Source: a virus | Lineage: Duplodnaviria; Heunggongvirae; Uroviricota; Caudoviricetes | Length of the DNA: 8,652 bases | Virus record (IMG/VR): IMGVR_UViG_2778261644_000004 | Reading direction: 5' to 3' (one strand) | Shown: positions 16 through 8,652 of the stretch, piece after piece | Position numbering within the stretch: the stretch's first letter is position 1 | Layout: each line of letters starts with the position of its first letter | The notes under the pieces: model-generated | Databases searched by the model: none | Told to the model about the DNA's origin: nothing | Seen by the model: the letters and a program-made list of their open reading frames with translations, nothing else | Position numbers and translations under genes: made by a program

Positions 16-615
16 TCAGAACTTATAACCGACACCCACGATGAAACCGTCAGTGCGCCAGTCACCACTGCCGGAGCCTTCATAAGCAATATCAATGGCC
101 ACGGATTCGGTCGGGTTAAACTGCACGCCAGCCCCCCACGCCAGAGACGTGTTGCTGTGGCGACCGTCATCACTTCCGGTCAGCACATCGTGCGTTTTCC
201 CCTTGTTGTCAGTTACGCGAAGATAATCCCCGGAGAAAGTCGACACACGGCTGTAAGCCACACCCGCCATCGCATACGCGCTGAACCATTCATTCACGCG
301 CACAGACGGCCCCGCCATCACGCTGAACCAGCGGTTACGCACGGAATCTTCATGCCAGCGGGTATCGCTGTAATGGGTCAGCTGGCGATTCTTGTCTCCT
401 GCATAGCTGAATGACGTCACCATCCCCAGTGTGTCCGTAAACTCATAACGGTATTTCACGTTAATCCCGTTCAGATCATCGCTGCCGGGAACGTTCGTCG
501 AGGCATGAAGATACCCCGCGCTCAGCGTGGACTGATGTTCAGACGCCCATGCAGGCGCACCGGATACGGCCAGACAAATGGCTGCGGACAAAATGGCGGC
601 ATAAAGTTTACGCAT
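16..615 (-). CDS. lom: Lom/Ail-family outer membrane beta-barrel protein (lysogenic conversion protein)
   Basis: 199-aa ORF with an N-terminal signal peptide (MRKLYAAILSAAICLAVSGAPAWA, AxA-type cleavage site), alternating beta-strand-like segments and a C-terminal aromatic residue (ends ...GVGYKF) typical of OMP beta-barrels. It lies immediately downstream of J on the same strand, as lom does in lambda, and is similar in length to lambda Lom (about 206 aa). An SD-like GAGAGG sits 6-7 nt upstream of the ATG at 615. Confidence 0.88.
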   Translation of the reverse strand: MRKLYAAILSAAICLAVSGAPAWASEHQSTLSAGYLHASTNVPGSDDLNGINVKYRYEFTDTLGMVTSFSYAGDKNRQLTHYSDTRWHEDSVRNRWFSVMAGPSVRVNEWFSAYAMAGVAYSRVSTFSGDYLRVTDNKGKTHDVLTGSDDGRHSNTSLAWGAGVQFNPTESVAIDIAYEGSGSGDWRTDGFIVGVGYKF

Positions 616-636
616 AATTACCTCTCGCTTTTCTGC

Positions 637-663
637 AATAAAAAAGGCGTCATTTCTGACGCC
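637..663 (-). terminator. Rho-independent terminator between J and lom
   Basis: Perfect 7-bp inverted repeat ggcgtca (646-652) / tgacgcc (657-663) with a 4-nt loop. On the minus-strand transcript this is GGCGUCA-GAAA-UGACGCC (GNRA-type loop) followed directly by UUUUUUAUU (plus 637-645). It lies 19 nt downstream of the J stop codon. Confidence 0.6.
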
Positions 664-681
664 CGTTATGGGTTATAAAAT

Positions 682-4083
<3,402 letters not shown>

Positions 4084-4140
4084 TCACGCTCCAGAAACGA
4101 CAAAACCGCCCGCAGGCGGTTTCACATAAAACATTTTGCA

Positions 4141-4788
4141 TCAGCGACCAATCACCACAACCTGACCACCGTCCCCTTCGTCTGCCGTGCAGATCTCCTG
4201 AGATACCACGCGTGACCCCACGCGCATTTCACCGTACAGAACGGGCAGAACATTCCCCTGGGCAACCATGTTATCCAGTGAGGAGAAATAGGTGTTCTGC
4301 TTACCGTTATCCGTTGTCTGTGTGCGGGGAGTTCTGGCTTTCGGTGCCAGCATCTGAGCCACACCGCCCAGGATCATACTGGCCCCTGCCGCATACATGC
4401 CCGATACAGCCGCGGCACCCAGCCAGCCCACAGGGTTCCACCATGCCACCGCAATCAGCGCCGCACCCAGCACTGCCTGAAAAACACCGCCACTTTTAGC
4501 TCCCGCCAGACGCGGCACAATGTGGATCACGGCACCATTTGCCAGCGGCTCATTAAGACGGGCAGATAATTCATTTTCGCCTGCATCACGCCCGGCAATG
4601 CGCACCTGATACCAGCCCTCATTCAGTTTCTGGCGAAACGACGGAAGCTGCGTGGCCAGCGCCCGGATGGCTTCGGCCCCCGTTTTCACACGAAGGTCGA
4701 TGCGGCGGCCAAATCGTTGTAAATCCCCGTAAAGGCAGATGCGTGCCATGCCCGGTGACGCCAGAGGGAGTGTGTGCGTCGCTGCCAT
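4141..4788 (-). CDS. I: Tail tip assembly protein I
   Basis: 215-aa ORF starting MAATHTLPLASPGMARICLYGDLQRF..., in the lambda gpI position between K and J. Its 5' end overlaps the 3' end of K by 103 nt in a different frame, the same arrangement as lambda K/I. The C-terminal part is Gly/Ala-rich and hydrophobic. Confidence 0.87.
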   Translation of the reverse strand: MAATHTLPLASPGMARICLYGDLQRFGRRIDLRVKTGAEAIRALATQLPSFRQKLNEGWYQVRIAGRDAGENELSARLNEPLANGAVIHIVPRLAGAKSGGVFQAVLGAALIAVAWWNPVGWLGAAAVSGMYAAGASMILGGVAQMLAPKARTPRTQTTDNGKQNTYFSSLDNMVAQGNVLPVLYGEMRVGSRVVSQEICTADEGDGGQVVVIGR

Positions 4789-5429
4789 TTGTCTGTATAC
4801 CTCTCTCGTTTGCTCAGTTGTTCAGGAATATGGTGCAGCAGCTCGCCGTCGCCGCAGTAAATGGCGGCATGATTCGGCACCGATGAACCAAAACAGCACA
4901 GCAGCACATCGCCCGGCTGCGCCGCTGACAACGGCACCTGATACAGCCCTGTGGCCTCCAGATTATCCAGATAGAGATTCTGACCGTGACGCCACCAGTC
5001 ATCCTCGCGGTGAAAATCCGGCATCTCAATCCCCGCCAGATGGTAAGCATCCCGGAACAGCGTGTAACAGTCTGTCACCCCGTGCTCAAAGCGCCGTCCG
5101 GTAAGATGCGGCACACAGCGGAACTTGTGAATCGCTCCCCGACAGACCAGCCACCACGGCAAATCACTCTGCACCTGCAGCCGCCTGTCGGCTTCACTCA
5201 GCCAGGGCAGACCACCGGGATGACTGTGGACCAGCGCGACAATCTCACCCTGCATTTCTGCACTCAGCCAGTCCTCCGGCGACATCCGGAAATACGCCTC
5301 CGACTCACCGGAGATATTCACGCAGGGAAAATATCTTTCCCCTTCCGGCGTTCTCACCACGAAGCCGCACGACTCCGCTGGCGCACATCGCCGGGCGTGC
5401 GCCAGAATCGCTGATTCTGTCTCTGTCAT
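4686..5429 (-). CDS. K: Tail tip assembly protein K (JAMM/MPN plus NlpC/P60-like domains)
   Basis: 247-aa ORF. It contains a JAMM-type metal-binding motif H-S-H-x7-S-x2-D (VHSHPGGLPWLSEAD) and a downstream Cys/His pair (GVTDCYTLF ... VPNHAAIY) consistent with an NlpC/P60-like fold. It starts 5 nt after the L stop codon. An internal Met at codon 49 would give the 199-aa form annotated for lambda K. Confidence 0.87.
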   Translation of the reverse strand: MTETESAILAHARRCAPAESCGFVVRTPEGERYFPCVNISGESEAYFRMSPEDWLSAEMQGEIVALVHSHPGGLPWLSEADRRLQVQSDLPWWLVCRGAIHKFRCVPHLTGRRFEHGVTDCYTLFRDAYHLAGIEMPDFHREDDWWRHGQNLYLDNLEATGLYQVPLSAAQPGDVLLCCFGSSVPNHAAIYCGDGELLHHIPEQLSKRERYTDKWQRRTHSLWRHRAWHASAFTGIYNDLAAASTFV

Positions 5430-5434
5430 GGGAT

Positions 5435-6133
5435 TTACTGCGAAAGTTTGTTAATGGAAAGGAAGCCGCCAAAGTTGCCGACATTATTGCGAAACTTACA
5501 ACCGCTCAGGCATTTGCTGCATTTATCCTTCGTAATATCGGACGTCGGCTGGTCATATTCATCCGCAACAACCGGACCGTTATAACCGCACTCATCACCG
5601 CGATAGGTCCAGGTGCAGGTATTAGCCAGCATGATGCGCCCCGGAAAAACGGCACCATCCGTTTCAGTCGGTGTGGACAGTACAAAAGAGGCACTGACCG
5701 CGCTCAGTTCGCTGCACTGCTCGATGCGCCAGCGGCTGATCACCTCCTGCTCCGGATCGGCTTCGCTGTTTCCGTTGATGAAGTTCACCGCATCCAGAAA
5801 ACGGGCATAAACCTTACGCCTGACCACCGTTCCGCCGACCAGACTCTGCAGGTCTTCGGCCATCCCGGTGACCATGCCATACAGGTTAGATACCTTAAGT
5901 GTGGGACGTGCGCTGCTGCCCTTACCGTTCATCTCAAAGCCGCTTCCCTGAATGGGGTACGCCTGATACTTTCGCCCCTGCCAGGTAACCGGTTCACCTT
6001 TTTCATTCTGCTCATTGCAGAAAAAGTAACGCTCCCCACCGACCTCTGTCAGATCAATTTCCCAGAGCACCACGCTGGCCGTCTGCTCCACACGGATGCA
6101 TTCATTCAGTGTTTCCTGTCGTATGTCCTGCAT
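5435..6133 (-). CDS. L: Tail tip protein L
   Basis: 232-aa ORF, the same length as lambda gpL, in the position between M and K. It has a C-terminal cysteine cluster (C..C..DKCSKCLSGC) consistent with the iron-sulfur-binding C-terminus described for gpL. Its ATG overlaps the M stop codon (TGATG). Confidence 0.9.
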   Translation of the reverse strand: MQDIRQETLNECIRVEQTASVVLWEIDLTEVGGERYFFCNEQNEKGEPVTWQGRKYQAYPIQGSGFEMNGKGSSARPTLKVSNLYGMVTGMAEDLQSLVGGTVVRRKVYARFLDAVNFINGNSEADPEQEVISRWRIEQCSELSAVSASFVLSTPTETDGAVFPGRIMLANTCTWTYRGDECGYNGPVVADEYDQPTSDITKDKCSKCLSGCKFRNNVGNFGGFLSINKLSQ

Positions 6134-6471
6134 CAGATCACCACTTCGTCAAACTGACACGAAAAATCGGTATAGGTGATATGTTCTGTCGCTGACCACG
6201 TTCGACACACCACTCTGATTTTTCTGTTAATACCCGGCGGGCGCCAAAAAAAAGATTTATAGCCTTCATGCCGGGCTAAAAATTTTTCAAATGAATCACG
6301 TTCATTCGCCTCAACTTTGAAATCACAGGTGAAAACGCGCAGAGAATGATTAAGTCCATTTGGACTTCGTTGCTCATAACCATCACCAAATCTTACAGTT
6401 TTTATCGATGGTTTATTTTCTGTTTTCATTCCATCCTCTGGTAACCAGTGAAATTCTTCCGTATTAGCCAC
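6133..6471 (-). CDS. M: Minor tail protein M (tail tip)
   Basis: 112-aa ORF from a GTG at 6471; an alternative ATG at 6429 is preceded by GAGGA. It has a VRFGDGY motif and a size characteristic of the phage minor tail protein M family, and sits between H and L. It overlaps the H stop by 8 nt if the GTG start is used. The start codon is uncertain. Confidence 0.75.
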   Translation of the reverse strand: MANTEEFHWLPEDGMKTENKPSIKTVRFGDGYEQRSPNGLNHSLRVFTCDFKVEANERDSFEKFLARHEGYKSFFWRPPGINRKIRVVCRTWSATEHITYTDFSCQFDEVVI

Positions 6472-8581
6472 TTAACATTCCCCCATCACGTCGCATATTT
6501 AACAGATTGCCCTGCACCCGCTGATCAACCATCCCCATAAGTGCTTTTATTGCCTGAGGGCCAATCTCTCCATTCTGGCCGTCATTTTGAATAGTGATTT
6601 GGTATACAGGGGCATAGGTAATATCTCCGCCTCCATTACCACTTTTACTATTAATAGCTCTGACACCAAGAGAACCATCGGAAGTTCGTGTTAATGGCAT
6701 AATGGCTTCCGGTCCAGCCTCACCAAAAACACCAGCCCCTTTTGCAAAAGCAAAAAATTGCGGGGAATCATAAATACCGTTCGAATACGTGCTCAATGAC
6801 GGAGACTCATAAACACCGCCCTTTGCATTCGGAATAAATTTACTAATAGCACTCCCGATAGTTCCTAAAATCCCCCCAGAAGAACTGTTACTAATGCTGT
6901 CGAAAATCCCAGTAATTGAAGCCTTTAATGCTATTCGACTAAGATCCGAAATCACGGAAGTAGCGAAAGAACGAAAATTTGCCTTGCCTGTCGTGACAAA
7001 ATCACCCAGCGCATCGGTCATCCCATCAAACATCTGAGTCGTGGTTGATTTTATCTGCTCACTGATATCCTTAGTGTCATCCAGCCAGTTATTGAATCCC
7101 TGGGAGGCACCACTAACCCAGTCTCCTGCCTGAATATCGAGCTGCTCGTTTTTCTGTCTGACAATTTCTTTTTCCCGTTCCAGAGCATCATTCAGAGCCT
7201 GCATTTTCTCTTGAAAAACATGATCTGACATTCCACGGGATTTATCTGCATAGTCACGTTCAAGTTGCAGACGCTGATTGTTATATCCATGTTCAATCCG
7301 CAGTAATTCCTGCTGGCGTTGCTGATTTTTATCGCCAACCCCATAACCAGCAATCTGAATATCATACCCCTGCTGACGATTATCAATCGAAGCCTGCAAT
7401 GAATCACGCCATGCTGTTATTTCGGCGGATTCCTTGATTAGCCTGTTATTTTTTTCAATCGCAACATTTTTCTCCATCAACGTGGTTATTTCTTCCCGGT
7501 GTAAGAGAAGCGATTTCTGATCCTGGGTTAATTTCGATGATGGTCGTGACTCTAGGTCGGCAATCCGCTGACGCCACTTAACCAGTTCCTGTTCAGAGGA
7601 ACTTAATTTAACGGTCAACTCAGCTTGTGAACTTAGTAACGCATTCTGTTGATTCAGATGATCAATCATTCGTTGGGCTGCATCATCAGAATAACCTTTC
7701 GCCTTTGGTTGCTTTGGATCTTTATAACGCTCATTTATTTGAGCGATAAGATTATTATATTCTTCCTTTGAATACTGATTCTTTAGCTTTTCCAGTTTTG
7801 CAAGTTCACTAGCTCTCTGCTGCTCCCGGGTCTGATATTGTTTTGAAAAGGCATCTGCTCTCTGTCTGAGTTCAATTCCTTCCTGTTGTCGCTTGTTGTA
7901 ATCGTTTATTGATGAATTTAGTACGTCCTGAGCAATTTTTTCTGCTTGAAGTACGCCCAATTGCTGCTTTAATCGTGCCAGCCTTTTATTTTGAGCTCCG
8001 CCATCTCCAATGCCACCTAACCCGAAAACTCCGGGTCGGGTATTTTTTTCTATTTCATCAATTTGACGGAGAACATCTGAGATTTTTTGATCAAGGGAGG
8101 CCTCACGGCCAATATCCAGCATGGAATCCCATGCCCATTTTGCGGAGTCTGCGACAGCTTTCCATGCAGTCTCAAGATAACCAAGATTTTCTTTAATCTG
8201 GTTGGTGCGCTGGATCATTGAGGATGAGTATTCTTCTGTCGCAATGCGGGCGGCCTCCTGCTGGTTCCCTTCATCCTGTAGCGCCTTAATCTGGTTATAA
8301 GTCGCAAGTGTCAGAAAATGGTACTGATCATTAAGTTTTGATATGGCACTGACAGGATCCTTTGCAATTTCATTGAAGTCATTAACCAGTTGTTCGGTTG
8401 ATATTCCTGTTACTTCGCTCGTTTTTACTATCGCTGTCGTCACTTGCTCCAGCGAACTGCTCGCTACCTTTCCCGAACGCACAAGCTGATTTAATACTGC
8501 CGCCGCAGCACCAGTTGTCGAATCAGCCGCATTCCCGGCACGTTGAGCTATATCGCCCAATTGCCCGCTGGTTGTCCCCAA
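6464..8581 (-). CDS. H: Tail tape measure protein (lambda gpH-like), 5' end unresolved at window edge
   Basis: 705-codon ORF with a long Gln/Glu/Lys/Arg-rich predicted coiled-coil centre and a C-terminal region (...FRSFATSVISDL...; ...NDGQNGEIGPQAIKAL...RRDGGMLSG) that I recognise as resembling the C-terminus of lambda gpH. It sits upstream of M as in lambda. The ORF as given begins at a TTG directly after an in-frame TAA (8621-8623), while homology appears to continue upstream in another frame, so the true 5' end is ambiguous. Confidence 0.8.
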   Translation of the reverse strand: MGTTSGQLGDIAQRAGNAADSTTGAAAAVLNQLVRSGKVASSSLEQVTTAIVKTSEVTGISTEQLVNDFNEIAKDPVSAISKLNDQYHFLTLATYNQIKALQDEGNQQEAARIATEEYSSSMIQRTNQIKENLGYLETAWKAVADSAKWAWDSMLDIGREASLDQKISDVLRQIDEIEKNTRPGVFGLGGIGDGGAQNKRLARLKQQLGVLQAEKIAQDVLNSSINDYNKRQQEGIELRQRADAFSKQYQTREQQRASELAKLEKLKNQYSKEEYNNLIAQINERYKDPKQPKAKGYSDDAAQRMIDHLNQQNALLSSQAELTVKLSSSEQELVKWRQRIADLESRPSSKLTQDQKSLLLHREEITTLMEKNVAIEKNNRLIKESAEITAWRDSLQASIDNRQQGYDIQIAGYGVGDKNQQRQQELLRIEHGYNNQRLQLERDYADKSRGMSDHVFQEKMQALNDALEREKEIVRQKNEQLDIQAGDWVSGASQGFNNWLDDTKDISEQIKSTTTQMFDGMTDALGDFVTTGKANFRSFATSVISDLSRIALKASITGIFDSISNSSSGGILGTIGSAISKFIPNAKGGVYESPSLSTYSNGIYDSPQFFAFAKGAGVFGEAGPEAIMPLTRTSDGSLGVRAINSKSGNGGGDITYAPVYQITIQNDGQNGEIGPQAIKALMGMVDQRVQGNLLNMRRDGGMLSG

Positions 8582-8652
8582 CTGATTTCCTGAACCGCCC
8601 CGGGTTTCCTGGAGAGTGTTTTATCTGTGAACTCAGGCTGCCAGATCATCGT
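8551..8652 (-). pseudogene. H: Upstream portion of the tape measure reading frame in a different frame (runs off the window); possible frameshifted H
   Basis: The minus-strand frame offset by one nucleotide from the H ORF is open from the window edge to a TAG at 8548-8550 and reads TMIWQPEFTDKTL..., which resembles the region of lambda gpH just N-terminal to where the 705-aa ORF begins. I could not verify this alignment computationally. Confidence 0.35.

Follow-up and report, generated by a model that had tools for sequence, protein, structure and literature searches.

The DNA analysed here, a stretch of 8,652 nucleotides that we refer to throughout as the window, carries on its minus strand a block of lambda-like tail genes. 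At its upper end lies the 3′ part of a tape-measure gene of the lambda gpH type (6464..8590; 2127 nt, comprising codons 370-1077 and the stop codon), whose first 369 codons are cut off. Downstream of it, at 16..6471, are apparently intact homologues of gpM (6133-6471), gpL (5435-6133), gpK (4686-5429), gpI (4141-4788), gpJ (682-4080) and Lom (16-615), all on the same strand and assigned from the list of open reading frames, Pfam matches and the annotation of syntenic E. coli prophages. Using exact look-up of the J homologue (protein WP_097443070.1, annotated as Escherichia coli), we identified the window as the reverse complement of an entire 8652-nt E. coli draft contig, NLWU01000122.1 of assembly GCA_002512025.1. 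Relatives of this prophage have neighbouring genes annotated as ydaY upstream and tfaR downstream, and since both are gene names of the K-12 Rac prophage, we describe the prophage as Rac-like lambdoid on the basis of that annotation.

Several minor features of the tail block can be noted at this point. There is a 103-nt overlap (4686-4788) between the K and I homologues, which are in different frames; the lambda K and I genes overlap likewise, and the overlap in the window looks ordinary. A 674-codon ORF antisense to J (1456-3480, plus strand) appears in the ORF list only, with no gene called there, and is most likely spurious. At the other contig end (1-15), the sequence stops 15 nt past the lom stop codon with no IS sequence visible there; a syntenic relative continues, about 50 nt further on, with a side tail fibre gene of 2.9 kb and tfaR, and the break at this end is probably due to sequence repeated among lambdoid prophages. 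We also found an identical 1132-aa J protein in another locus (L003 1-14016; GCA_014375845.1, AAVRNO010000047.1), where it stands beside HK97-type head genes and a different tape-measure protein of 1079 aa with Pfam matches to TMP_3 and Phage_HK97_TLTM, and the combination of the same J with a different tape-measure protein implies a mosaic boundary between the tape-measure gene and J.

We next consider the tape-measure gene itself, which in relatives is intact at 3234 nt and encodes 1077 aa. From position 8590 downward, the window is identical at 2127 of 2127 positions to the corresponding part of several E. coli prophage genes whose annotation is that of an intact 1077-aa tape-measure protein, and when compared with the intact gene of strain FDAARGOS_497 (L002) it matches at 98/98 positions at the junction and at 2121/2127 overall. 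The 705-aa product called from this part of the gene matches the Pfam families TMP_2, TMP_4 and Tape_meas_lam_C (PF06791, PF24622, PF09718). In the 62 nt above 8590, by contrast, identity to the intact FDAARGOS_497 gene drops to 17/62, which is chance level. Intact genes read ...AAATCTCTTATTCTTACC/GGAAATCAG... at the break point (...NKSLILT/GNQ in translation), and the protein of an intact homologue continues across it as ...YYKGSQEQDEFNKSLILT/GNQLGTTSGQLGDIAQRAG..., with ...DEFNKSLILT/GNQ as the true upstream sequence. The break thus falls 1107 nt (369 codons) into the 3234-nt gene, and not near its 5′ end, where a reading of the window from sequence alone (below, the sequence-only reading) had placed it. 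Codons 1-369 are missing from the gene in the window, and with them the segment MRMLPAQ...QQGGQ (residues 281-312 of the intact protein).

The sequence above the break proved to be the end of an insertion sequence. A megablast search with positions 8652-8200 against phage records split the query into two parts: bases 63-453 aligned at 98.5-100% identity with prophage genes annotated as “tail length tape-measure protein”, and bases 1-63 (in some records 1-73) aligned with the end of an IS629/IS3-family OrfB. Of the 186 matching records, most belong to Stx-converting phages. A search of E. coli complete genomes split the query in the same way. The terminal 62-65 nt matched annotated IS629 OrfB or mobile_element features in several Stx-phage records at 98.5-100%, and minus-strand positions 8652-8591 are identical (62/62) to the right terminus of an IS629-like element of 1310 bp carried by E. 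coli NCTC9699 (L001), while the next 60 nt past the junction match the flank of that IS copy itself at 15/60 positions only, which is again chance level. We accordingly annotate 8591..8652 (minus strand) as the last 62 nt, at the right-hand end, of an element of the IS629 type (IS3 family), oriented as the tail genes are and cut by the contig end.

Details of this terminus are those of the IS3 family, as far as the right end—the only one in the window—and a fragment of OrfB can show. The right terminal inverted repeat (8591..8615, minus strand) is imperfect, about 25 bp long, and ends 5′-...GGTTCA-3′, giving the terminal CA of the 5′-TG...CA-3′ ends typical of the family. The two ends of the NCTC9699 copy pair at 23 of their first 25 positions, and the repeat in the window corresponds to the right end, TGAACCGCCCCGGGTTTCCTGGAGA (reverse complement) or TGAACCGCCCCGGGTTTCC, and not to the left end, ...GGGAATCC... 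The right end reads ...CCCGGGGCGGTTCA at 8604-8591, and the same terminus is found in the annotated mobile_element IS629 of Stx2 phage 1717. OrfB reads toward this right end, its last five codons and stop (8633..8650, minus strand; DDLAA followed by TGA at 8635-8633) being identical to the end of an annotated IS3-family transposase CDS in the NCTC9699 locus. What interrupts the gene is therefore the junction of IS and target at 8591/8590, where the tape-measure gene is truncated. The first target triplet after the IS is GGA at 8588..8590 (minus strand), the Gly codon 370, which we presume to be a 3-bp target-site duplication.

Because the window is a whole contig, its sequence stops 62 nt into the IS, and this visible length precludes calling the isoform. 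A full element would measure about 1310 bp, with orfA and orfB joined by a programmed -1 frameshift, and its remainder would lie on other contigs. Contigs can end adjacent to an IS in short-read data (PMC4558774). A contig end inside a multi-copy IS is commonly encountered in short-read assemblies; the 62 nt here may correspond to the assembler’s k-1.

With this identification, the reading frames at the upper edge of the window can be reinterpreted. Followed upstream on the minus strand, the frame of the tape-measure gene meets stops at TAA 8623-8621 and TGA 8635-8633. The 705-codon ORF (8581..6464, minus strand) is called from a TTG at 8581-8579, which is an internal in-frame leucine codon (Leu373) of the intact gene; intact homologues start translation elsewhere. 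In the adjacent minus frame no stop occurs between the window edge and TAG 8550-8548, before which this frame reads TMIWQPEFTDKTLSRKPGAVQEISWGQPAGNWAI, and the third minus frame at the window edge reads DDLAA and a stop, the C-terminus of OrfB. A Shine-Dalgarno-like tetramer, AGGA (8588..8591, minus strand), putative by sequence, lies 6 nt before the TTG, and is itself a product of the junction, with A the last IS base and GGA the target, where intact genes have CCGGA. The sequence-only reading had listed the ORF from the TTG with its upstream in-frame TAA, the second open frame ending at 8548-8550 and the AGGA about 6 nt before the TTG, and all of these are indeed present.

What that reading made of them fares differently. 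It likened the peptide WQPEFTDKTL in the open frame to the lambda gpH segment upstream of the 705-aa ORF, and placed a frame change at about 8594-8613. In concrete terms, this would mean a 1-nt deletion or 2-nt insertion, by mutation or sequencing error, with the peptide as the true upstream part of the gene. The only support is a visual likeness of EF-DKTL to the DFNKTL of lambda, with SGNQ following. BLASTP-short with the 34-residue peptide, however, did not report the pairing, and its best match (against lambda gpH and the intact homologue) had E=2.3 and lay at unrelated positions. Aligning the window to intact homologues yields no indel in 8594-8613, and in its place the sharp junction at 8591/8590, above which the 62 nt match IS629 in full and agree with the true upstream gene sequence at just 17/62 positions. 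No homology continues across frames upstream of 8590, at either the nucleotide or the peptide level. Even the S of SGNQ derives from the TCA that ends the IS, whereas intact genes carry T (ACC). The other-frame ORF is unrelated IS sequence and no piece of a tape-measure gene, an outcome which that reading had itself named as speaking against its proposal, and the alignments refute a frameshift, whose chance we regard as practically negligible. Its broader suggestion of a defective prophage holds insofar as the gene is disrupted and lacks its N-terminal part, but the cause we assign is IS629 insertion, not a frameshift mutation and not an indel from a homopolymer run or from assembly.

Comparison with lambda gpH clarifies how the resemblance could arise. 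At the corresponding place, gpH reads ...WYQGNSTLSDFNKTLVLS/GNQAGLTADRM..., codon 370 corresponding to gpH Gly157, and an FNKTL-like segment just upstream of the break was thus rightly expected by the sequence-only reading. Judged from these alignments, WQPEFTDKTL arises when the non-coding IS629 end is read out of frame, and its gpH likeness is coincidence. The false frame change results from the tape-measure frame meeting IS stops (TAA, TGA) while another frame happens to be open through the non-coding IS end, and the short chance likeness (“EFTDKTL” from the IS vs. “DFNKTL” in gpH) lent the wrong reading plausibility. More generally, when a contig stops a few dozen bases into an IS, it can mimic a frameshifted gene. 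Two further candidates in the same interval can be set aside: reading by eye, we found no X XXY YYZ heptamer at 8591-8613 in the frame needed for a -1 shift from the frame open at the window edge into that of the tape-measure gene, a slippery site being in any case moot once the IS is identified; and a terminator-like hairpin on the plus strand at 8600-8612, within the inverted repeat of the IS, we took to be a consensus match without relevance.

The IS629 junction lies at the extreme end of the contig, and the left side of the insertion is outside the window. We therefore predicted what that side should look like, using four N-terminal variants of the protein found in relatives, and searched for the resulting fragments by exact look-up among about 15 billion proteins. 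IS629 duplicates 3-4 bp of target (PMC3271280). If GGA was duplicated, the left junction would read ...ACCGGA/TGA, the IS starting with TGAACC, and the tape-measure gene would yield a 370-aa fragment ending ...LILTG. A simple insertion of this kind predicts ...CTTATTCTTACCGGA (also ...AATAAATCTCTTATTCTTACCGGA) followed by TGAACCGCCCCGGG..., with the left end of the IS expected after the target as ...ACCGGA/TGAACCGCCCC; a 4-bp duplication, on the other hand, would end the fragment with ...LILTGMNRPGNPGD. One 370-aa version (ending ...LILTG) had an exact match, encoded on just one NCBI contig of 84,885 nt, while neither 379-aa version, corresponding to the 4-bp duplication, was present in the exact look-up among these roughly 15 billion proteins. 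The 84,885-nt contig is likely from the same assembly as the window, and the 370-aa fragment would fit a simple insertion with a 3-bp GGA duplication. Like the 705-aa product, the fragment has no NCBI protein accession, as would be expected had both halves been annotated as pseudogenes by NCBI.

The 370-aa fragment bears on two alternatives. First, IS629-mediated deletion, inversion or IS-IS recombination might have left codons 1-369, perhaps along with head genes, absent or located elsewhere: the left junction is outside the window, whose contig ends in the IS, and IS-mediated deletions in E. coli prophages are documented in literature cited in PMC3271280. That a protein on a single NCBI contig ends at the exact residue predicted for simple insertion argues against such a rearrangement, an unrelated truncation at that residue of a 1077-aa protein being improbable, and we consider it unlikely. 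Second, the IS629 end might have been chimerically joined during assembly to a gene whose genomic copy is in truth intact. In favour of such an artefact, the junction comes from one draft short-read assembly, lies at an extreme contig end, and has no counterpart in any other genome searched; yet the break falls exactly at the last IS base (...TTCA), as expected of transposition, NCBI data contain the complementary 370-aa fragment, whose stop would come from the left end of the IS, and an identical contig is recorded for two samples. An assembly artefact is, on balance, exceedingly improbable.

We conclude that the window very probably records the insertion of an IS629-type element at codon 370 in the tape-measure gene of this Rac-like prophage, as a step of ordinary prophage decay. 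Under this IS629 insertion model, an element of the IS3 family of about 1.3 kb, presumably full length, would have transposed into codon 370 of 1077 in the orientation of the tail operon, and the assembler would have stopped at the multi-copy IS, ending the contig 62 nt within its right end. The gene would thereby be split into a 370-aa N-terminal fragment, whose stop codon, given a GGA duplication, would be the TGA at the left end of the IS, and a promoterless 3′ remainder whose longest ORF begins at the internal TTG. In a promoter scan of 8300-8652, we detected no sigma-70-like site. Since the 3′ remainder is without the MRMLPAQ...QQGGQ segment, which within the N-terminal region resembles gpH most closely, loss of tail assembly is likely, and the prophage is hence likely to be defective for infectious particles.

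A shortened tape measure made from the TTG, which the sequence-only reading had offered as an alternative, is conceivable in principle, with nothing in its support. A more specific version of this idea would have the junction-made AGGA and the TTG, together with read-out from the IS or antiterminated late transcription, produce a 705-aa fragment that supports tail assembly, perhaps with shorter tails. We think this very unlikely; if true, the 705-aa fragment, alone or with the 370-aa fragment, would constitute a naturally split or shortened tape measure.

Placed alongside known systems, the IS629 insertion is a standard disruption of a prophage gene, with nothing departing from known biology. 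IS629 (isoforms IS1203, IS3411) elements in E. coli and Shigella prophages share with the window the terminal 62 nt, the OrfB C-terminus, the CA-ending repeat and a prophage target, and of the IS629 copies counted in four O157:H7 genomes, 62% are located in prophages or elements resembling them (PMC3271280). IS629 hits on prophage morphogenesis genes can be seen as a routine step on the way from lambdoid prophage to cryptic remnant. The 3-bp duplication proposed here is within the 3-4 bp range reported for IS629, whereas the codon 370 site itself distinguishes this insertion: the same junction was found in none of the E. coli complete genomes, GTDB species representatives or IMG/VR viral contigs that we searched, and exact look-up of the 705-aa product returned this contig only.

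The closest parallel is the element of E. coli NCTC9699 (NZ_LR134228.1; L001 4753-6062), which sits in the same gene of the same prophage type in the same IS orientation. This 1310-bp element is 96% identical to the IS629 of phage 1717, and RefSeq annotates the gene halves on either side as incomplete pseudogenes. It differs in position, following codon 212 at a point 474 nt upstream of the site in the window; its duplication is GTC, and it represents an independent event.

Comparison with lambda shows both likeness and divergence. The intact homologue aligns with gpH at E=5e-77 (homologue residues 270-1077 with gpH residues 57-850), and the downstream order M-L-K-I-J-lom is shared; the intact homologue nonetheless has about 210 extra N-terminal residues (1077 vs. 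853 aa) and 28% identity to gpH, and the gene in the window has nothing that corresponds to gpH upstream of Gly157. The programmed -1 frameshift of lambdoid tail genes (G/G-T) likewise involves an apparent frame change among tail genes upstream of M, but it occurs in chaperone genes upstream of H and not inside H, and the window, in contrast, has no homology across frames.

The same tape-measure gene has also been entered by a different element. In E. coli SW071611 (NZ_CM129855.1), an IS1 interrupts it (L011 2856-3553), the 3′ part being otherwise 100% identical to the window, and the sister strains SW071619 and SW07163, also of the SW0716 wastewater series, show the same match pattern. By these alignments, the tape-measure gene is a repeated IS target, with IS629-like and IS1 elements arriving in independent events. 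As a separate observation, the gpM homologue is annotated as “frameshifted” in two relatives (L008 3420-3757 and L011 4197-4534), and here, in contrast to the window, true single-base frameshifts within the prophage family may be involved.
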